A DNA stretch of 64,000 bases from Candidatus Heimdallarchaeum aukensis (lineage in GTDB: Archaea; Asgardarchaeota; Heimdallarchaeia; Heimdallarchaeales; Heimdallarchaeaceae). Shown here in pieces: positions 1,112 through 37,092 of the stretch (within the stretch, counting starts at the first letter, position 1; each line of letters begins with the position of its first letter). The stretch spans positions 192,001 to 256,000 of the forward strand of contig CP084166.1 of NCBI GenBank assembly GCA_021513695.1, read 5' to 3'. The position numbers were made by a program, and so were the translations under genes. Below the pieces are notes generated by a model. The model did not search any database. It saw only the letters and a program-made list of their open reading frames with translations, and was not told the origin of the DNA.

Positions 1112-1690
1112 TTATTTACTTGGTAAAAATGATTCAAGAGAATGGTTCTTTATATGTTGAATTATAGAATTCTTTGTATCAAAAGTTTCTTTACAAATTT
1201 TACATACGAAAATCTTCTTTTCTTGAATATAATCCCCAAAATTTATAACTATAAATTCTGATTTGAAACTTGATTCTTTTTCTAGATTATTCACAACATT
1301 ACTACAGATTTCATTTTTTGTATTTAATAGGTCAGGTGGGAAATCTAAAGTATCTTCATTTTCTTTAAGATAATCTTCGACTTTTTTTGAGAAATCTCTG
1401 GGAAAATACCATTTATTACCCTTTCTCTCAACAAATTTTTTTAGAAAGTAGTTTATTCTGTTATATAAATTAACCCATGAAGGATGCTGTGAAGCCCCCA
1501 GAAATGATTCAAATTGGCCATATGCTATATATCGAGCAATCGTAGATGTGTCTATTGCTACTGGTTGCCAATCTGCTTTATTCTCAAAATGCTTGAATGA
1601 TTCCACTGCGTCAACTATAGATTTTAGCAAATTTACCTTATCGATATCAAAATTCGCTTCTGTATGTGATGACCCTTTTTCACTAATCAT
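1112..1690 (-). CDS. Small protein with a C-terminal classical C2H2 zinc finger
   Basis: The C-terminus reads FVCKICKETFDTKNSIIQHIKNH, which is C-x2-C-x12-H-x3-H, the canonical C2H2 spacing. The ORF is 192 aa. Confidence 0.55.
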   Translation of the reverse strand: MISEKGSSHTEANFDIDKVNLLKSIVDAVESFKHFENKADWQPVAIDTSTIARYIAYGQFESFLGASQHPSWVNLYNRINYFLKKFVERKGNKWYFPRDFSKKVEDYLKENEDTLDFPPDLLNTKNEICSNVVNNLEKESSFKSEFIVINFGDYIQEKKIFVCKICKETFDTKNSIIQHIKNHSLESFLPSK

Positions 1691-2374: not shown

Positions 2375-3571
2375 TTGTTTAGCATGCTTAAGAAAGAGAC
2401 TTATAAAGATATGATTACTGCAAATCAAGCTGTTGCATTAGCTGTTGTTCGTGCAAAACCCAAAGTTATTGCTGCTTATCCTATATCTCCTCAAACTACA
2501 ATTGTTGAATATCTCGCTGATTATTGTGCTTCAGGTGATCTTGATGCAGAATATGTTAGAGTAGAGTCTGAGCATAGTGCAATGACTGTTGTAGCTGCTG
2601 CACAAGGAACAGGTGTTAGAACTTTTACAACCACTGCATCTCAAGGTTTAGCTTATATGCATGAAGTAGTGGCTGCTACTGGAGGAATGCGATTACCTGT
2701 TGTAATGTTTGTAGCTAATCGCACACTCATGAGTCCTGGGGGTATTTGGCCTGAATATTCAGATACCATGCCTGAAAGAGACACAGCTTGGCTTCAAGTT
2801 TATGTTGAAGATAATCAAGAAGTTTTTGATATGATTATTCAAGCTTATAAAATAGCTGAACATAAAGATGTGTTATTACCAATAATGGTCTGTGGAGATG
2901 GATATATTCTTACTCATACATCAGACACTGTTGAAATTTTAGGAGAGAAAGAAGTAGATGAATTTCTTCCACAATATAAATCAGAGCATGCATATTTGGA
3001 TATTGAAAGACCTTTGGCACAAGGAATAATTGTTCCACCTGCATACCATATGGAAGCAAAATATCAAATGCATATGGCTATGAGAAAAGCAAAAAAAGTA
3101 ATCCAAGAAGTTAATGAGGAATTTTCAAAGAAATTCGGTCGAGATTACGGGGGGTTAATAGATACTTATAAGCTAGAAGACGCAGAAATAGCATTAACAG
3201 TTGTAGGTTCAACTACAGGAACAGCAAGAACAGTAGTTGACGAATTAAGAAAAAAAGGGGTAAAAATAGGTCTTCTTAAAATTAGATTCTTTAGACCTTT
3301 TCCATTTGAAGAAATAAGAAAAGCTTTGGAAAATATGAAAGCTATAGGTGTTTTTGATAGAAGCTTATCTTATGGTTCTACAGGACAATTTTTTGGTGAA
3401 GTTAGAAACGCGTTATATGGGTTAAATATTCCTATAGTTAATTTTATTGCAGGATTAGGTGGGAGAGACATTAGAGAAGAAGATATTCGAACAATGATTA
3501 ACAAAATCGATGAACTAAAGGACAAAGAACAACCAGAAGATCCTATAATATTCGTTAATACTCGATTTTGA
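2375..3571 (+). CDS. porA: 2-oxoacid (pyruvate):ferredoxin oxidoreductase alpha subunit
   Basis: The 398 aa product begins ...ITANQAVALAVVRAKPKVIAAYPISPQT..., typical of a PorA/KorA N-terminus. The length fits a stand-alone alpha subunit. A T-rich stretch follows the stop. Confidence 0.8.
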   Translation: MFSMLKKETYKDMITANQAVALAVVRAKPKVIAAYPISPQTTIVEYLADYCASGDLDAEYVRVESEHSAMTVVAAAQGTGVRTFTTTASQGLAYMHEVVAATGGMRLPVVMFVANRTLMSPGGIWPEYSDTMPERDTAWLQVYVEDNQEVFDMIIQAYKIAEHKDVLLPIMVCGDGYILTHTSDTVEILGEKEVDEFLPQYKSEHAYLDIERPLAQGIIVPPAYHMEAKYQMHMAMRKAKKVIQEVNEEFSKKFGRDYGGLIDTYKLEDAEIALTVVGSTTGTARTVVDELRKKGVKIGLLKIRFFRPFPFEEIRKALENMKAIGVFDRSLSYGSTGQFFGEVRNALYGLNIPIVNFIAGLGGRDIREEDIRTMINKIDELKDKEQPEDPIIFVNTRF

Positions 3572-4055: not shown

Positions 4056-4130
4056 GAAGACTCAACTAGGTTGAATCTTCCTTAAGTATAAAAATAATTA
4101 TATCTTTTTATTTCTTTCTATTTTTTTGTC
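4056..4130 (+). terminator. Hairpin (gaagactcaac-tag-gttgaatcttc) followed by T-tracts, downstream of the histone-fold gene
   Basis: The stem is 11 bp with one mismatch. It is followed by tttttatttctttctattttttt. Confidence 0.3.
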
Positions 4131-4199
4131 GGATGAATATTTAACTTTTAGGCTTTTTTACCAAAAAGTTAATAGTTTTTAGATAATTCTTCCTTAATA

Positions 4200-4910
4200 A
4201 TGCAGATAGAAGGAGAATATACATATGCCAAATTTATAGAAAGGCCAAACAGGTTTTTAGCAAAAGTAAAACTTTATTCTACAGAAAAAGTAGAGTATTG
4301 TCATGTTCCAGATCCAGGAAGATTAAAGGAATTACTTTTACCTAACGTTGAAGTTTTTTTAAGAAAAGAAAAGAGTCAAATTAGAAAAACAAAATATTCT
4401 CTAATAGGTGTTAAAGCGGAAAATGGTACTTGGGTCAACATTGACTCACAGATTAGTAATAAGCTCTTTTATTTAGAGATGAAAAAAATTGAAAATTTTA
4501 GTAACTATAAGATCCTAAAGAAAGAATTTAGTTTAGGAAAAAGTAGAATAGACTTCTTGTTAAGAAATGTTGAAAACAGTAAGCAAGCTTTGGTTGAAGT
4601 GAAAAGTGTTACTTTGGTTGAAGAAAACACAGCTTTATTTCCTGATGCTCCGACGAAGAGAGGAGTAAAGCATCTGAAAGAACTTGAAGAAGCGGTTAAA
4701 GAAAACAAATATAATGCTTTTATTGTTTTTATTGTAAAGAGATCTGATGCTAAAAGTTTTAGTCCTAATTGGGAAAGAGATAAAAATTTTGCTAGCGCAC
4801 TAGTTGAAAGTTCTAAAAAAGGAGTTAAAATAATAGCTGTTGTATGCTCTTTTTCTCCTGAAAGAAAGGAATTGAGTATAATAAATAAAATCCCTATATT
4901 TCTGAATTAA
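4200..4910 (+). CDS. sfsA: Sugar fermentation stimulation protein SfsA family
   Basis: ERPNRFLAKV...YCHVPDPGRL...RIDFLL..., plus the conserved SfsA N-terminal and C-terminal motifs. Confidence 0.6.
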   Translation: MQIEGEYTYAKFIERPNRFLAKVKLYSTEKVEYCHVPDPGRLKELLLPNVEVFLRKEKSQIRKTKYSLIGVKAENGTWVNIDSQISNKLFYLEMKKIENFSNYKILKKEFSLGKSRIDFLLRNVENSKQALVEVKSVTLVEENTALFPDAPTKRGVKHLKELEEAVKENKYNAFIVFIVKRSDAKSFSPNWERDKNFASALVESSKKGVKIIAVVCSFSPERKELSIINKIPIFLN

Positions 4911-4928
4911 TATCGCGTCATTTGTTCT

Positions 4929-6404
4929 TTAACTTAACGATTTTTTTCTCATTTTCTCTATATATTCTTGACTATAACCAAACAAAATAAACTTTCTAGA
5001 ATTTTCAAAAGTGATTTTCACTGAAATTTCTTGTTCATTATCTAAAAATATTTCAGGTAGTAGCATGTTTGATTTTATATTTTCAATTTTTATTATAGGT
5101 ATAGATTTTAGAACTCTGTCTTTTGTTGTTAATACAAATAAATGTTCATCAACAATTGTCCATTTTGCTACATATTCTTTTTTTACGACCTCATTTATTG
5201 AATTTATATAGATATCATCGAAGAAAACTTGTTCTGTTTTTATTATTGCTTCTATTATGAAACTGGTCAGTAGGTAGAGAACTATAAACCAATAAACATA
5301 ATTTTCATCCCAAAAATGAATAACAAATAAAACCATTGAAACAATTAAGAACGCAAAATTACCCAGAAATTGAAGAAAATATTTGTGTGCCTTTTTTAAT
5401 CCCTCTTTTACCTTCGTTTTCTGTTTATAAGCAGTAAAATGCTTAAAATTTAGATATTTTTCATAATCGTTTTCATAATCTTTAAAGAAAAAAGGTTGAA
5501 AGATTTTTTTCCATTTAACTACTCTTGCAGGAATTTTGTAAAACATTTCTTCTTCATTACCAAATGATATTTTAGATGAAATCCAATTTTTAGGTAGATC
5601 TTCTTTTTCTTTTACTCTTAAGAAAACATTTTTTATTTCTCTTTTCATTTTTACTTTTTCTCTTAATTTTACTATTTTAAAATATGAAAAAATTAGTATA
5701 ATTGAGAAAAAAGTACTAAGTACAGTAAGTGTGAAAGTTGTATAATATGCAGTTTTCAGACTTATATTATTGTTAAAAGCAATATAGAGCGAGGGTAATG
5801 TTAGGGCCAACATAAACAAAATCCCTATTGCTTGAATATTGTTTTCTAATCTAAAATTCTGATTTCTAGTTCTCCTAATAGATTTCTTTAACAAATAAGA
5901 TAGTAATTTAAAGGCTTTGTAGTATGCTAAAAAGAAGAAAGTAGGAAAAAGTACAAACATACATATATACAACCATATTGAAAATATAGAAGGTTGTGTG
6001 TAATCTTCTGTTCTAAGAAATGAGCTGAAAATAAGAAAGCTAAGTAAAGTTGAGAAACCTAAAACAAATATGTTAGGAAAAATAAAAGTCCAAATCGCAA
6101 ATGATTCCATTATTAACTTCCTTGAATCAACGATTTGATTCAAAGGATATAAATCAGAAAGAGGATCTTGAATGCTTTTATCATCTGTTTCATTCTTGAA
6201 ATAGTAGCCCTCAAATATTATTTCTTTCTGATTCTTTGATTTCCAATTAACAAAATCTATTATTAGTTCTCTTTGGTTATTGGAAATATCTTTGGTATGG
6301 ATGTTGTAATCTTCAATTTCTCCTTTTTTTCTAAAATAATCAGTTTTAATCCTGACAGATTTTTTATTTCTTGAAATATATTTTTCTTTATTTGTTACCT
6401 TCAT
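4929..6404 (-). CDS. Polytopic membrane protein with soluble N- and C-terminal beta-rich (PH-like?) domains; hypothetical
   Basis: The 491 aa product has at least six hydrophobic helices in its central part. Its start is 4 nt downstream of the helicase stop, which suggests an operon. Confidence 0.45.
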   Translation of the reverse strand: MKVTNKEKYISRNKKSVRIKTDYFRKKGEIEDYNIHTKDISNNQRELIIDFVNWKSKNQKEIIFEGYYFKNETDDKSIQDPLSDLYPLNQIVDSRKLIMESFAIWTFIFPNIFVLGFSTLLSFLIFSSFLRTEDYTQPSIFSIWLYICMFVLFPTFFFLAYYKAFKLLSYLLKKSIRRTRNQNFRLENNIQAIGILFMLALTLPSLYIAFNNNISLKTAYYTTFTLTVLSTFFSIILIFSYFKIVKLREKVKMKREIKNVFLRVKEKEDLPKNWISSKISFGNEEEMFYKIPARVVKWKKIFQPFFFKDYENDYEKYLNFKHFTAYKQKTKVKEGLKKAHKYFLQFLGNFAFLIVSMVLFVIHFWDENYVYWFIVLYLLTSFIIEAIIKTEQVFFDDIYINSINEVVKKEYVAKWTIVDEHLFVLTTKDRVLKSIPIIKIENIKSNMLLPEIFLDNEQEISVKITFENSRKFILFGYSQEYIEKMRKKSLS

Positions 6405-6408
6405 CTTT

Positions 6409-9393
6409 CTACTTCCATATTATTTTTTTATTGACTTTGAAGATTTTATTCTGTTTTTCTCTTTCCTGAGTTATATTTTCTTTTACAATTTCTCCAAGAG
6501 CAACTATCCTGTTCCAAATAACAACTAATTGACTAATTTCATCTGTTTTTAAAAATGAAAGACCTATAACTATTAATTGTTTTAATGCTTTTTCGTTTAT
6601 TTTTTGATTGTTTTTAATTATTGTTTCATCTTCTTTTAATTCTTTAATCGAGATTCCAATATTAGCATTTTGAAGCATGAGCATGGAATCTAATACCGTT
6701 TCTACTTTTGGATTGATTCTTGGTAACAATAGTCGAAAATAATTACCTATTCTTTGGCTAAATGTAACATATTTTATTTCTTCACTGATTAAGTTCAATG
6801 CGTCATTTTTCTTCTTCAGGGCTATTTTATACTCATTTAATAAAATTAAACTTTGAAATACATCAGATAGTAATTCTGTGAAAAGTTTCTTTTCAAAATC
6901 AATGTATCCCTTACGGAAAAACCTTTTTTCATTATTCTTATATTTTATAACTCCATAACTATCGTTCACTACAGGAATGATAAAAGTTCTATCTTCAAAT
7001 TTTAAGTCATAAGATAATAATTCAACGTTGTCATATTTTTCTCCAATTTTCCACTGCTCATAAGTTTTTTCTCTTTGCAACGCCTTATTTATCATGATTT
7101 GGTTAAATTTACTGATATCTTTTGCTATCTCACTTATATCTTCAGAGATTGAAGGAAAAATATGTCCTATTCCTTTTTCTATTATTCCATCTTCTGACAA
7201 TCCATAAAAGTGTTCATGTTTTCGTTGTATATTAAAAAAGGTGCTAAGACCGAAAGGTAAACTAGGCTCAATTACAGCTATATCCCATATGTTGCTTATT
7301 TTTTTGTCATCTGTTTCATCTACTCTATATGCTCTTCCTTTAGTTTGAATAACAGTTTGATAAGCAGATACTGAAGTTAAATCAATAAGTGTATTTAGTT
7401 TAACAGAGTCCCACCCTTCTCCTAATATGTTTCTTGGCCCAATCAGACATTTAGTTATCCCCTTCTCAAGTAAATAAGTAAAAAGAAGAGTGTATATTCC
7501 TGTTCTCCAATCAAATCCCTCTCCTATAATTTGGACAATTTTCTCGTTTTCTGTTCTTTTTATTGACAATTTAAAATCAAATTTGAAATTCTCTTTCCAT
7601 TTTTCACTTTCTTTTAGTATTTGATTAGCTATGTCTCTATCTGTAAGTATTGATGAAGAAGAAATGGAAACTGGATCTAACTGGTTGGTTTTAGTATTTG
7701 AAATAAGCTTTTCTAAGATACTTAACGACAGATTTTCTGTAGTAAAATCATAAATTATTGCTGAACGTAATTTATCCTTTAAATATGAGAATTCATACTC
7801 TAGAATCTCAACAATAGCATTTATTTTTGATTTACTTGAATTAAGAAAACTAAAAGTTACTTCTCTCTCTTTCATTAAATTATCTACATTCTCTAGTTTC
7901 TCAAAAAATCGACCTAATTCGTTATAATAATTTAAAGCTTTTTTAGAATTGAATTTCTGTTTTCTAAGATAATTCCAATAATAGGCGTGAAGAATAATAA
8001 ATAATTCATTTAATGTAAATTTTTCTTGATCAATTGCTTCTTGATTTTCAAAAATCAGATAAATTTTGTTTACTAAATCATCATTCTTGTATCGTTTTAT
8101 TATGTTTAGATGATTATTTTCATATTCTTCTTTAAGAAATTCAATAGGGTCTTTTAGATTTTTAGATTTTAATGAAGAAAAGAGCTTTCTCAAAGGTTTG
8201 AATTTTTTTTCTATTTCCTTTCTTTCTTCCTCTTGAGGATAGACAAAGTATAACAAATCTTGATAAGGGGCTATGTTTTTTTGTTTTACCGCTGCTGGAG
8301 TAGGTATTTCGATATCAACAGAACCAAAAAGTAATTCGTATATTCCTACTTCTTCATCCTCGACATTCACATCAGTTGGAGGAGTTGCAGTTAAACCCAA
8401 AATGAATGGGATGTTAAATTCTTCAATAAGATAGTTTACAATATATGCCCAAATTGATGTAAGATGATGACACTCATCTAAGATTATTAGACCTATTCCT
8501 TTGTTTTTTAGGGTGTCAATTATCTCTAATGTGTTTTTGTGTAGAATGTCTTTAATCTTTATATCTGAAAAATTAAACTCTCCTTTTATTATCTTATGCC
8601 TTATTTTGTTGATATATTCATTTATTTTTGCTTTATACTCTTCATAATTACTTTTTTTTAAAGATTCAATAAATTCTTTATTTTCATTTTTTTCTTTTAA
8701 CCACATTTTTTCAGCAAAATGCTGTAACATCTCTTCTTCTTGAGAATAAACAGAAAAACGTTGGTAGGTCATTACTGTAATTGGAGCTCTTGATTTAGGG
8801 TCTGTATTTCCAATCATCGTGTTAATGATATTGTTTTCTTTGTCAAGAAACAATTTAATTTTATCTATCCATTGGTCCTGAGTAGAAAAATTTGGTGTTA
8901 GCACTAGAGTATTTTTTGCTATTTGTTTTGCTATTTCAAGACCTACAATAGTTTTTCCTGAACCAGGAGGAGAAACAACATAAAACTTCCTTTCTACTGT
9001 GCTAATTTTTTGTTCAAATTTTTCTAAAATAAGTTTTTGAGATTGCCAAAATTCTCCTCGAAAATACATGTTTGTTAATAAAGAAGGATCAATTTGTCCA
9101 TCTCTGTCTAAATCAAATCTGTATTCACGGAAAGAATTTATTGAAATTTTGATAAAATTATTTATTTTCTCTACTTTTTTACAGTGGGGACAATATTCAT
9201 TTATTTTATACCATTGCTCTAAATGTTCAGAATGAAAAAGACTTCTACAATAAGGGCATAGATAGACTATATCTTCTTTATCAAAAGGTGTAAAGCATAT
9301 CTCACATTTAACAATTTCAGCTCTGCAATTTTCACAGAAATTCCAATCTAACTCAATTTTTGAGTTACAGTTTGTACAACTGTAATGATTCAT
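6409..9393 (-). CDS. Superfamily-2 (DExH/ResIII-like) helicase with N-terminal multi-Cys zinc-ribbon module
   Basis: The N-terminus carries repeated C-x2-C pairs (CTNC, CENC, CEIC, CPYC, CPHC). Walker A is VVSPPGSGKT. Motif II is ILDECHH, motif III is LTATPP and motif VI is QTKGRAYR. A long insert lies between the RecA lobes. Confidence 0.7.
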   Translation of the reverse strand: MNHYSCTNCNSKIELDWNFCENCRAEIVKCEICFTPFDKEDIVYLCPYCRSLFHSEHLEQWYKINEYCPHCKKVEKINNFIKISINSFREYRFDLDRDGQIDPSLLTNMYFRGEFWQSQKLILEKFEQKISTVERKFYVVSPPGSGKTIVGLEIAKQIAKNTLVLTPNFSTQDQWIDKIKLFLDKENNIINTMIGNTDPKSRAPITVMTYQRFSVYSQEEEMLQHFAEKMWLKEKNENKEFIESLKKSNYEEYKAKINEYINKIRHKIIKGEFNFSDIKIKDILHKNTLEIIDTLKNKGIGLIILDECHHLTSIWAYIVNYLIEEFNIPFILGLTATPPTDVNVEDEEVGIYELLFGSVDIEIPTPAAVKQKNIAPYQDLLYFVYPQEEERKEIEKKFKPLRKLFSSLKSKNLKDPIEFLKEEYENNHLNIIKRYKNDDLVNKIYLIFENQEAIDQEKFTLNELFIILHAYYWNYLRKQKFNSKKALNYYNELGRFFEKLENVDNLMKEREVTFSFLNSSKSKINAIVEILEYEFSYLKDKLRSAIIYDFTTENLSLSILEKLISNTKTNQLDPVSISSSSILTDRDIANQILKESEKWKENFKFDFKLSIKRTENEKIVQIIGEGFDWRTGIYTLLFTYLLEKGITKCLIGPRNILGEGWDSVKLNTLIDLTSVSAYQTVIQTKGRAYRVDETDDKKISNIWDIAVIEPSLPFGLSTFFNIQRKHEHFYGLSEDGIIEKGIGHIFPSISEDISEIAKDISKFNQIMINKALQREKTYEQWKIGEKYDNVELLSYDLKFEDRTFIIPVVNDSYGVIKYKNNEKRFFRKGYIDFEKKLFTELLSDVFQSLILLNEYKIALKKKNDALNLISEEIKYVTFSQRIGNYFRLLLPRINPKVETVLDSMLMLQNANIGISIKELKEDETIIKNNQKINEKALKQLIVIGLSFLKTDEISQLVVIWNRIVALGEIVKENITQEREKQNKIFKVNKKIIWK

Positions 9394-9609
9394 CAGATTC
9401 TATTTCCTAAACATCTATATAATATCTTTCTTTCAAAAAGTGTAAAAATAGAAAGAGTTGAGAATCATAATATGCAATTATCATCATAATTCAGACAGGG
9501 GTAACTTAATCATTTTCTCAACAAAAAAAAGATTTCTTCTTGTTTTTTTAATTTTCCCTTTTGTAAAACTTCTTGAACAGTAAATTTTTGATAAAATATT
9601 GAAAATTTA

Positions 9610-9972
9610 TTATCCGTGCCCTAGCAAGTCATTGGCTACCATGTTAATTACTTCTTGTGCTTCTTTTGATAGTAGGTGTCTTTTAGGAGTAATAGCTGCT
9701 TTATAGATATCATTTAGAATTTTAGCTCTATTCTTATTCACTACATCGAGCAAAGTCATATCATCAATATTATCTGCTTGCTCTTTATATAAAGCAATAA
9801 TGTCGTCTTCAAGTTCTTTTGTTGCTTCTTTTATTGCTTTAATAATTCTTTTTTCTGAAGCTGTAATCTTGCCTGATTTTGAACAGAAGTCAATTACTGA
9901 TTGAACCATATTCTTCAAAATCAATTTAACTTCTTCAATTTCTTTTTCAGTGTCTACTGATTCTGCCAACAA
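9610..9972 (-). CDS. Hypothetical alpha-helical protein
   Basis: The ORF is 120 aa. No motif was recognised. Confidence 0.3.
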   Translation of the reverse strand: MLAESVDTEKEIEEVKLILKNMVQSVIDFCSKSGKITASEKRIIKAIKEATKELEDDIIALYKEQADNIDDMTLLDVVNKNRAKILNDIYKAAITPKRHLLSKEAQEVINMVANDLLGHG

Positions 9973-10045: not shown

Positions 10046-10969
10046 CTAATCATTTTTTATGCTTTCGTCTAGGTTGGTAGCTTTTTCTAATCCTCTATAT
10101 ATCTTCCATCTTCTATCGATATATTCTTTAAGTTTTTCAACTTGTTCAGGGGTTATATTTTTGAATCGTCCTTGTTTTGACAAAAATTCTTCTAATCCTG
10201 TAAATTTAGGTTTTCTGTTAATTTTCACTCTTCCATTTTCATATTCAATTAGTAGCCAATAACCTGATTCAACAGCTTCTTTTGCTAATTGGGGACCTAA
10301 ATGAGTTGGTACTTTCCATCCTGGAGTGCAGATAGACAAAACTTCTATATATCTAAATCCCTTCATCTTCTTTGCTTTTTCTATTTTATTGATAAAATCT
10401 TGAATGTAAGCTGTTGAAGCAGTAGCTACATAGGTAGCTTCATGTGCAATAAGTATCCTTGGAATATCTTTTGGAAACCATTCATTTCCTTTCGATTTTC
10501 CTTTAACAGGAGTTGTTGTAGACCACGAACCATAAGGAGTCAATCCTGAAGCTTGAATTCCTGTATTCTCATATGCTTGATTGTTGTAACAAATATACAA
10601 TATATTTTCATCTCTTTGAGCTGCTCCAGATAGAGCTTGTAGACCTATATCTGCCGTACCTCCATCTCCAGCCATCCCCAAGACTACTATATCTTCCTTG
10701 TTTTGAGCTTTTAAAGCTCTTGAGATCCCAGTAACAGTTGAAGCGGTATTCGCAAACTGTAGATGGAAATAAGGAACATCCCAGTTAAGATTAGGAAAAG
10801 TTCCTCCAAAAACACTTAGACAACAAGGGGGAACACTCACAATTGTTTTTTTCCCTAAAATACGCATTACGTTAATAGCGATATTTGACGCCATACAACC
10901 TGCACAAGCACTGTCTCCGCTTACAAACTCTGCTCTATCTGGAAGATCTTTTAATCTCATAGCTTTCAC
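10046..10969 (-). CDS. porB: 2-oxoacid:ferredoxin oxidoreductase beta subunit (TPP-binding)
   Basis: GMAGDGGTADIG is the TPP-binding GDG motif. Cys residues near the N-terminus are of the kind that bind the proximal FeS cluster. The product is 307 aa. Confidence 0.8.
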   Translation of the reverse strand: MKAMRLKDLPDRAEFVSGDSACAGCMASNIAINVMRILGKKTIVSVPPCCLSVFGGTFPNLNWDVPYFHLQFANTASTVTGISRALKAQNKEDIVVLGMAGDGGTADIGLQALSGAAQRDENILYICYNNQAYENTGIQASGLTPYGSWSTTTPVKGKSKGNEWFPKDIPRILIAHEATYVATASTAYIQDFINKIEKAKKMKGFRYIEVLSICTPGWKVPTHLGPQLAKEAVESGYWLLIEYENGRVKINRKPKFTGLEEFLSKQGRFKNITPEQVEKLKEYIDRRWKIYRGLEKATNLDESIKND

Positions 10970-36507: not shown

Positions 36508-37092
36508 GTGGTACAAATGAACTCATTGAATCAAAACATCTTTAAAATCGTACTCCTTGGAGAAGGAGCTGTAGGAAAAACCTCTTTAAAACGAACTTAT
36601 ATGGGTGAAGAATTCGTAGAAGGATATAAAATGACAGTAGGTGCTGATTTCGCAGTCAAGAAACTGGAGGTAGATTTCTACAAAATAACTTTGCAGATAT
36701 GGGATCTAGCAGGGCAACCTAGGTTTGATGCGGTAAGAGAGGCATACTATAGAGGAGCTAAAGGAGCTTTACTAGTTTTTGATATCTCTAGACCAGAAAC
36801 ATACGAAATACTACCTAAATGGCTAAATGAGTTAATAAAAAACAGTGGTGGACGAAAGGTACCAATAATTCTAATTGGAAATAAATCTGACTTGCGCGAA
36901 AAACATGATCAAACTGTTCCAATTAACTATGCTGAAGATTATGCTGAAAAGCTAACAATGTGGTCTGGATATCACGTGTCTTACGTTGAAACAAGTGCAA
37001 AAACGGGAGAAAATGTAGAAAAAGCCTTTAGTGAATTAGCTCTTCAACTTGTACGTAATTTAGAAAAATTAAAAGTTGAACTAGGGATATAA
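36508..37092 (+). CDS. Rab/Ras-like small GTPase
   Basis: G1 is GEGAVGKT. G2 is YKMTVGADF. G3 is WDLAGQPRF. G4 is GNKSDL. G5 is ETSAK. There is no C-terminal prenylation motif. Confidence 0.85.
   Translation: MVQMNSLNQNIFKIVLLGEGAVGKTSLKRTYMGEEFVEGYKMTVGADFAVKKLEVDFYKITLQIWDLAGQPRFDAVREAYYRGAKGALLVFDISRPETYEILPKWLNELIKNSGGRKVPIILIGNKSDLREKHDQTVPINYAEDYAEKLTMWSGYHVSYVETSAKTGENVEKAFSELALQLVRNLEKLKVELGI

Follow-up and report, generated by a model that had tools for sequence, protein, structure and literature searches.

A conserved gene pair of the Heimdallarchaeaceae encodes a RING-bearing superfamily 2 helicase and a clade-restricted polytopic membrane protein

What might a large helicase and a polytopic membrane protein do together when their genes lie only a few nucleotides (nt) apart in an Asgard archaeon? 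The question is raised by a 64000 nt stretch of the Candidatus Heimdallarchaeum aukensis genome (GenBank accession number CP084166.1; coordinates 192001–256000), referred to here in its full length as the window, for which an earlier reading of the sequence had predicted the gene for a 994 amino acid (aa) helicase and, 4 nt beyond its stop codon, the gene for a 491 aa membrane protein. Both open reading frames (ORFs) were found where predicted. They lie on the minus strand, as do all features of the cassette described below, with the helicase gene at window coordinates 6409–9393 and the partner gene at 4929–6404, and each starts with ATG. At the junction (6405–6411), the TAG stop codon of the helicase gene (6409–6411) is followed by the 4 nt spacer and then by the ATG of the partner gene. 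As stop codons are frequent at the G+C content of the window (~27–33%), and as both genes have conserved homologues, ORFs of this length did not arise by chance and both genes are real. The best match of the helicase is a protein of a Heimdallarchaeaceae archaeon (P0001; 99% identity), and the partner is 100% identical to K9W45_00760 of Ca. H. aukensis. The cassette is best explained as a two-gene operon specific to the Heimdallarchaeaceae, encoding a motor-plus-RING enzyme with an unprecedented membrane partner that is restricted to this one Asgard family, and the features described below suggest what its function may be.

The N-terminus of the helicase carries five C-x2-C pairs (C6/C9, C20/C23, C30/C33, C46/C49 and C68/C71). 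These pairs had been noted in the original prediction, but it was overlooked there that the last three, together with two histidines, form a RING domain. The first two pairs (C6, C9, C20 and C23) make up a four-Cys zinc ribbon (aa 1–27; coordinates 9313–9393), which matched the Pfam family DZR (E value 0.0042) and in which the Cys residues are invariant. A RING-H2-type cross-brace follows at aa 28–75 (coordinates 9169–9312), with the ligands C30-x2-C33-x12-C46-x2-C49-x4-H54-x2-H57-x10-C68-x2-C71 invariant in all five copies of the module. Ligands 3 and 4 are arranged as C-x2-C, where a canonical RING-H2 has C-x-H, making this a C4H2C2 variant. The segment of aa 28–75 matched the Pfam family zf-RING_2 (PF13639) with an E value of 4.8e-6, and the same family is annotated on P0001 and on P0003. 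Used as a single sequence against the PDB, the RING matched RNF38. A profile built from the five copies of the N-terminal module (four fused to helicases and one stand-alone copy from locus L013) matched 82 PDB sequences at E < 0.1, nearly all of them RING-type ubiquitin ligases (E3s). The matches to RING E3s ranged from 5.7e-8 to 1e-4, and included RNF4 (5.7e-8) and Arkadia (7.9e-7), as well as RNF126, RNF165, RNF24, EL5, RLIM, AMFR, RNF38, listerin, Rbx2 and Hrd1.

Ligands 3 and 4 are described as likewise out of register in the srfp E3 of Caldiarchaeum, which is experimentally active, and residues I30, W58 and R69 of srfp are required for ubiquitylation dependent on the ubiquitin-conjugating enzyme (E2) (PMC5654768). 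The counterparts of these residues in the helicase are I32, W61 and K72. At the E2-contact positions, I32 and W61, together with P69 of the final C-P-x-C of the RING, are invariant in all five copies of the module; at the linchpin position (K72), the helicase-fused copies all four have Lys, whereas Gln is found in the stand-alone copy. As judged from these alignments, a RING E3-type E2-binding surface is conserved in the helicase-fused copies. The presence of a RING-H2-type domain changes the most likely biology of the cassette.

The stand-alone copy of the module is found on a metagenome contig (L013; Ga0315279_10003637; genes at 4083–5231 and 5383–6417), where a 344 aa protein with no helicase carries the zinc-ribbon-plus-RING module and, C-terminal to it, another RING-like unit. 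This protein directly follows one of 382 aa that has an RWD domain and a C-terminal RING-like Cys/His cluster, and the two look like an Asgard-type E3 gene pair. As the module occurs there on its own, it appears to have been drawn from a pool of RING proteins present on Asgard-type contigs.

Between the RING and the motor of the helicase lies a linker (aa 76–110; coordinates 9064–9168), defined from alignments and specific to the clade of RING-helicases, which includes FREYRFDLDxD and has low confidence in the AlphaFold2 (AF2) model. Within it, the motif FREYRFDLDRDGQID (aa 88–102; coordinates 9088–9132) is conserved in all RING-helicases and is superficially EF-hand-like. An EF-hand reading of its DLDRDGQID loop was rejected, as the E value to Pfam EF-hand_5 was 0.089, another residue takes the place of the Gly in P0003 and no acidic residue is found at position 12.

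The remainder of the protein is a superfamily 2 (SF2) helicase/translocase, with motifs I, II, III and VI and two RecA-like lobes. Each of the predicted motifs was present, namely GSGKT (aa 144–148), DECH (306–309), TATP (335–338) and QTKGRAYR (683–690), and all fall on invariant columns of a 53-sequence alignment of the family, motif VI in the form QxxGRxxR. Matches to the Pfam families ResIII (1.3e-20) and DEAD (6.6e-9) were also found. Both lobes were evident in the AF2 model, which had a mean predicted local distance difference test score (pLDDT) of 82.6 and a predicted template modelling score of 0.77, and in fold matches. Lobe 1 (aa 111–385; coordinates 8239–9063), delimited from Pfam, the AF2 model and alignments with XPB, contains the Walker A, DECH and TATP motifs, and lobe 2 (aa 543–711; coordinates 7261–7767) contains motif VI. 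The long insertion that had been predicted between the lobes is seen in the model as an all-helical block of 150 residues (~aa 388–541), within a domain (aa 386–542; coordinates 7768–8238) that follows the first strand of lobe 2. We take its position to be comparable to that of Hel2i in the RIG-I-like helicases or of the thumb in XPB. A second helical insertion (~aa 215–295) is found inside lobe 1. The family-specific C-terminal domain (aa 712–994; coordinates 6412–7260), of ~280 residues, is conserved across the family and is mixed alpha/beta in the model, and no relative was found for it by sequence in Pfam or the PDB.

The partner is a polytopic membrane protein, as the earlier reading had it, with six transmembrane (TM) helices predicted from hydropathy at ~aa 103–130, 140–162, 192–210, 224–242, 344–362 and 370–388. 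A Kyte-Doolittle scan placed helices 1–4 within aa 97–242 (coordinates 5679–6116) and helices 5–6 within aa 344–388 (coordinates 5241–5375). They divide the protein into three soluble regions of ~100 residues each: an N-terminal domain (aa 1–96; coordinates 6117–6404), which is the best-conserved part of the partner in alignments, a central loop (aa 243–343; coordinates 5376–5678) with 28 Lys/Arg and 13 Asp/Glu residues, and a C-terminal domain (aa 389–491; coordinates 4932–5240), also delimited by alignment. The central loop had gone unmentioned in the original prediction. All three regions are predicted to be cytoplasmic, because the number of TM helices is even, Lys and Arg abound in the internal loops, as the positive-inside rule requires, and the external loops are tiny (7–13 residues).

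Homologues of the partner were rare. Two matches were found among 5.8 billion clustered proteins and three among 1.84 billion representatives, where HMMER was run over every protein, and neither search revealed a relative outside the Heimdallarchaeaceae clade. The partner matched no family in Pfam, NCBIfam, PADLOC or PHROGs. A suggested relationship to bPH/YdbT proteins (PF03703 and relatives) found no sequence support, as no Pfam match was obtained at E values up to 10 with the whole partner, its three soluble segments or its orthologues, and a profile of the C-terminal domain had no match in the PDB. A TM hairpin with a soluble domain of ~100 aa after it, as in the partner, would fit bPH and is not diagnostic of it.

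Conservation of the gene pair was examined next to other members of the helicase family. The pair was found in five loci representing three lineages and three genomic contexts, always with a junction of 4–5 nt, and the view that it is a conserved two-gene cassette was thus borne out. In Heimdallarchaeum endolithica (L001/L008), the helicase is 82% and the partner 62% identical to those of H. aukensis, the junction is 4 nt and the region is fully syntenic with the window. In an uncultured archaeon (L009), the helicase shares 46% and the partner 26% identity, the junction is 5 nt and a peroxiredoxin gene lies downstream; BLASTP matched aa 12–156 of the H. aukensis partner to the L009 partner (1e-10). 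A relative of this archaeon (L016) has a helicase 86–90% identical to that of L009, a partner with 29% identity, a junction of 5 nt, and ABC transporter and peroxiredoxin genes nearby. In a Logan contig (L003), a helicase with 45% identity has a pilin-like gene upstream and is followed after 4 nt by a gene that is cut by the contig end and encodes a membrane protein of partner-like layout. Every RING-helicase for which downstream DNA was available is followed by the partner. From the identities between orthologues (62% against 82%, and 26–29% against 46%), divergence of the partner has been about two times faster than that of the helicase.

At the L016 locus (coordinates 4937–7995), the RING-helicase is represented by two overlapping ORFs of 512 and 517 aa, each corresponding to one half of the L009 protein (90% and 86% identity, respectively), and the partner gene downstream is intact. 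The split is due either to an assembly frameshift or to decay of the gene.

The wider helicase family comprises more than 400 homologues, typically of 905–1050 aa with 27–35% identity to the query, and is mostly bacterial, with members in Clostridia, Planctomycetota, Lentisphaerae, cyanobacteria, candidate phyla radiation (CPR) bacteria and marine group II (MGII) archaea. At the six bacterial and MGII neighbourhoods examined, all of RING-less homologues, the helicase is a solo gene in ordinary surroundings that include rho and rpmE, Tad pilus genes and ABC transporter genes; no neighbour is shared between them, and the partner is not found beside any of the six. Among the best 120 family members, the N-terminal RING module is confined to the Heimdallarchaeaceae. 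The others begin ~45 residues before Walker A, and the sole RING-less protein among them with a zinc ribbon at its N-terminus, a plain one, is the planctomycete-like P0037. A neighbour-joining tree placed all RING-helicases in one clade, and phylogenetically the RING and the partner were gained together. One more lineage of RING-helicases is represented by a RING fragment of 140 aa (P0125) and an N-terminally truncated helicase (P0004), which overlap identically and are therefore parts of a single gene broken across two contigs. Additional searches for RING-helicases yielded two informative loci from a genome scan, one fragment from a search with the RING-module profile, and a fragment and an unrelated RING protein from a metagenome scan.

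Association with the membrane may not be limited to the Heimdallarchaeaceae. Around 30 of the 120 best homologues, mostly those closest to the Heimdall clade, were found to have an insertion of 50–60 aa in the C-terminal domain, at a site corresponding to aa ~800–836 of the query (window coordinates ~6886–6993). In the family alignment the carriers include P0005–P0022, P0026, P0028, P0030, P0032, P0045 and P0056. The insertion consists of two strongly hydrophobic stretches (19-residue Kyte-Doolittle means of up to 2.8) and is predicted to form a TM hairpin. In planctomycete and MGII members this site is occupied by a short GGFPPF loop, and in the Heimdall proteins by a beta-hairpin (~aa 790–836) with no hydrophobic stretch. 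Hydropathy and gene order together suggest that some clades have their membrane anchor in cis, as the hairpin, that the Heimdallarchaeaceae have it in trans, as the partner, and that a large uncharacterised helicase family may be membrane-anchored.

P0037 is encoded on a further contig (L014; JAXDEL010554469; coordinates 5001–8672), where 13 nt separate its gene from that of a 230 aa polytopic membrane protein. This protein includes a HELTH (HExxH-like) motif and is unrelated to the partner. Transglutaminase-like and MoxR-type AAA genes lie upstream of the gene for P0037.

These features are most readily accommodated by a membrane-tethered, ATP-driven complex of RING E3 and translocase. The helicase is a chimera, in which a zinc ribbon and an archaeal, srfp-type RING-H2 have been joined to the N-terminus of a mostly bacterial SF2 helicase with a motor resembling those of the double-stranded DNA translocases XPB, UvsW, Snf2 and Hef. 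The partner would dock the RING-helicase at the cytoplasmic face of the membrane, standing in, in trans, for the TM hairpin that is predicted in cis in the closest bacterial relatives. The ATP-driven motor would then engage nucleic acid, most likely duplex DNA, and the RING would recruit an E2 charged with ubiquitin, which would be transferred to the partner, the RING-helicase itself or a bound target. The probability of this mechanism as a whole is estimated at about 0.45, and the domain architecture of the cassette, considered by itself, is assigned with high confidence.

Several observations count against this proposal. The RING scored 27.2 bits with Pfam, 0.1 bit short of the gathering cut-off of 27.3, and the RING region has a pLDDT of 40–72 in the AF2 model of the helicase. 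The fold model of the partner, made from a two-sequence alignment, was poor (pLDDT 37.6), and the TM hairpins of the bacterial relatives are hydropathy predictions. The partner at L003 was not detectably similar to that of H. aukensis (BLASTP E value 0.31), and its homology is judged from position and layout. This helicase family has no biochemically characterised member, and no gene for ubiquitin, a ubiquitin-activating enzyme (E1) or an E2 was found in the window or beside any of the loci with the pair. In favour of the proposal, ubiquitin and E2-like proteins with the catalytic Cys are reported for Heimdallarchaeota AB125 (PMC9192718).

A role in anti-virus defence had been raised in the original prediction, as pairs of a helicase and a membrane effector recur in prokaryotic defence systems. 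In such a system the helicase would sense, or translocate on, invading nucleic acid and activate the partner as an abortive-infection membrane effector, and the RING would regulate the response or signal. The restriction of the partner to one clade and its faster divergence would suit this role, as would Foldseek matches to the RIG-I, MDA5, LGP2 and Dicer helicases, which were found together with matches to Hef, FANCM and XPB. A search of PADLOC-DB 2.0 with the helicase gave a match to type IV DinG (5.6e-6; 23 bits), which is a further, if weak, point for defence and was the only one, and none was obtained with the partner, so that the pair is, as had been stated, not assignable to a named system. 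When NCBIfam, PHROGs and PADLOC were scanned with the helicase, with the partner and with a 120 aa ORF upstream of the cassette, only generic helicase matches were returned, and similarity to ZorD and SauUSI reflects the generic SF2 core.

The genetic context also argues against defence. The cassette has metabolic surroundings and is flanked by housekeeping genes, for PorA, SfsA, PorB and ATP sulfurylase/APS kinase (Sat/CysC), and by one for TauE, with genes for an ABC transporter, a NiFe hydrogenase, TldD/PmbA and an Arf-like GTPase farther out in the window. Ten flanking proteins were compared with PADLOC and no credible match was found, those obtained having E values of 3e-6 or weaker and all falling on the P-loop of the ATP sulfurylase/APS kinase. 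H. aukensis and H. endolithica share the same order of genes here, indicating that the cassette is not in a variable island of the kind expected for a defence system, and the loci in L009 and L016 share another, likewise stable, context. With the pair at a stable locus in each lineage and the bacterial and MGII homologues occurring as solo genes in ordinary contexts, the defence theme found no positive support, and a defence function is considered unlikely.

Stable chromosomal context and broad conservation of the family as a solo gene would instead suit a housekeeping helicase for DNA repair or fork remodelling, with zinc modules that are structural or bind nucleic acid and a membrane protein gene that is merely co-transcribed. 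The closest characterised relatives, XPB, UvsW, Hef, FANCM and RadD, point the same way. In a PDB search the closest solved relatives by sequence were archaeal XPBII and Rad25 (~1e-11), and XPB, UvsW, Snf2 and Hef were the closest solved folds of the motor. However, the helicase scored 59.8 bits with the XPB equivalog model NF045503, which has a cut-off of 610, and 31.5 with TIGR00603 (cut-off 328.7), and the XPB models matched only ~110 residues of lobe 1. On these scores the helicase is not an XPB orthologue, and it falls outside the characterised repair families, among which its placement would have spoken against the original prediction. A Bax1-like nuclease gene, which might be expected next to XPB, was not found at any locus, the neighbours in the window being PorB, the 120 aa ORF, the partner and SfsA. 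Survival of the pair and its 4–5 nt junction through three changes of context, down to 45% identity between helicases, is not expected for unrelated neighbours, and the joint gain of RING and partner and the conservation of E2-contact residues, beyond the zinc ligands, are also not accounted for. A repair role for the pair is thus quite improbable.

ComFA at the competence channel and SecA, an SF2-like motor on a membrane channel, may offer analogies for a motor that would draw nucleic acid (DNA or RNA) through, or as far as, a channel made by the six-TM partner. Despite the apparent recurrence of membrane association in the family (hairpins in cis, partner in trans) and the polytopic membrane protein encoded after the zinc-ribbon homologue P0037, such transport is very improbable, given that the external loops of the partner are tiny with no sign of a pore, that competence, pilus or secretion genes are not consistently adjacent (the pilin-like gene is seen in L003 only) and that the RING is left without a role.

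Expression of the cassette was considered from the sequence around the two genes. A run of eight T residues (9523–9530) follows the upstream 120 aa ORF, and a candidate archaeal TATA box, ATATTATATA (coordinates 9416–9425), was read from the sequence with its centre ~28 nt upstream of the helicase ATG. Because of these two elements, the helicase and partner genes probably form their own transcription unit, with a leaderless or near-leaderless transcript. The last two codons of the helicase gene, for Trp and Lys, are TGGAAG, and TGGAGG or TGGATG is found at the same place in orthologues, so that TGG-A[AGT]G lies just upstream of the partner ATG in every orthologue. This sequence resembles a Shine-Dalgarno element and is compatible with translational coupling of the helicase and its partner.

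The 120 aa ORF upstream of the cassette (coordinates 9610–9972, minus strand) encodes a helical protein with no family assignment. It is retained in H. endolithica as a 119 aa gene. As it is missing upstream of the pair in L003 and L016, it is probably not a member of the cassette.

The cassette lies between the genes for two subunits of a 2-oxoacid:ferredoxin oxidoreductase, the alpha-type subunit (POR_N/PFOR_II; coordinates 2375–3571, plus strand) and the beta-type subunit (TPP_enzyme_C; coordinates 10046–10969, minus strand), which are convergent and non-adjacent. They are separated by a small ORF, seen in H. endolithica, the gene for SfsA, the cassette and the 120 aa ORF, and the arrangement is the same in H. 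endolithica. Elsewhere in the window, a 192 aa protein (coordinates 1112–1690, minus strand) has a C-terminal C2H2-type zinc finger typical of eukaryotes (zf-C2H2_4; 6.1e-5), and a 191 aa small GTPase of the Arf/Ras/Roc family, an Asgard 'eukaryotic signature' protein, is encoded at ~36517–37092 (plus strand). Near the latter, two large genes lie side by side and encode proteins of 678 and 682 aa; one of these proteins matched TPR faintly, and no Pfam match was found for the other.

A literature search found no paper describing a RING-helicase fusion in Asgard archaea, and the Heimdallarchaeum genome paper does not mention the helicase and partner genes. It is possible, though open to doubt, that the cassette is the first prokaryotic case of a ubiquitin-ligase RING fused directly to an ATP-driven nucleic-acid translocase and held at the membrane by a dedicated partner. 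In Asgard archaea, ubiquitin has so far been tied to small stand-alone RING proteins and to ESCRT sorting, and fusion of a RING to a motor would widen its reach. An active enzyme would mean that, in the archaeal relatives of eukaryotes, ubiquitin signalling already extends to nucleic-acid transactions or sensing at membranes, and the cassette would offer a simple two-protein system for studying the coupling between an E3 and an ATP-driven motor. The cassette also shows how the Heimdallarchaeaceae, which are closely related to eukaryotes, assemble composite proteins, a mostly bacterial helicase having been combined with a RING of archaeal/eukaryote type and with a membrane partner that looks to have arisen de novo, and anchoring in cis or in trans would provide the first functional handle on a widespread, uncharacterised helicase family.

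Among known systems, the Zorya system (ZorAB with ZorD) and type IV DinG differ from the cassette in that no PADLOC model fits the partner and none is convincing for the helicase. The partner also lacks MotAB- or ZorAB-like features in Pfam, and the context is not that of a defence island. In archaeal and eukaryotic XPB (Rad25, Ssl2), only the motor core aligns, with a TM-score of 0.2–0.3 when normalised to the query. The RING-helicase is about twice as long, with its two helical insertions, a private C-terminal domain of 280 aa and no Bax1 neighbour, whereas XPB itself has neither a RING nor a membrane partner. Hef, FANCM, the RIG-I-like helicases and Dicer share a helical insertion between the RecA lobes and were matched by Foldseek at ~1e-11, nearly the level seen with XPB, but they showed no significant sequence match, and the nuclease, CARD or RIG-I-like receptor C-terminal domains are absent from the cassette helicase. 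This similarity may reflect just the shared SF2 core and helical insert.

The RING itself is closest in type to srfp of the Caldiarchaeum and Asgard ubiquitin operons, with which it shares the RING-H2-type cross-brace with displaced ligands 3 and 4 and the conserved Ile, Trp and basic linchpin. However, srfp stands alone as a small protein, and its gene shares an operon with those for ubiquitin, E1 and E2, whereas in the cassette the RING is fused to a helicase of 900 aa with no ubiquitin-system gene nearby. In the eukaryotic enzymes Rad5, HLTF, SHPRH and Rad16, a RING is inserted inside lobe 2 of an Snf2 motor. In the Heimdallarchaeaceae protein, the RING is instead N-terminal, after the zinc ribbon, and the Pfam family SNF2-rel_dom (PF00176) was not matched by the query at E values up to 0.1, though faint or weak matches to it were found in some bacterial relatives. 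The Snf2-RING enzymes would nonetheless be the closest functional analogues, a parallel that does not imply a common origin of the fusion. If the proposed function is correct, Asgard archaea would have arrived independently at the 'motor plus E3' logic of Rad5, HLTF, SHPRH and Rad16, of which FANCM with FANCL, and RIG-I with RIPLET and MAVS, would be the split versions in eukaryotes.

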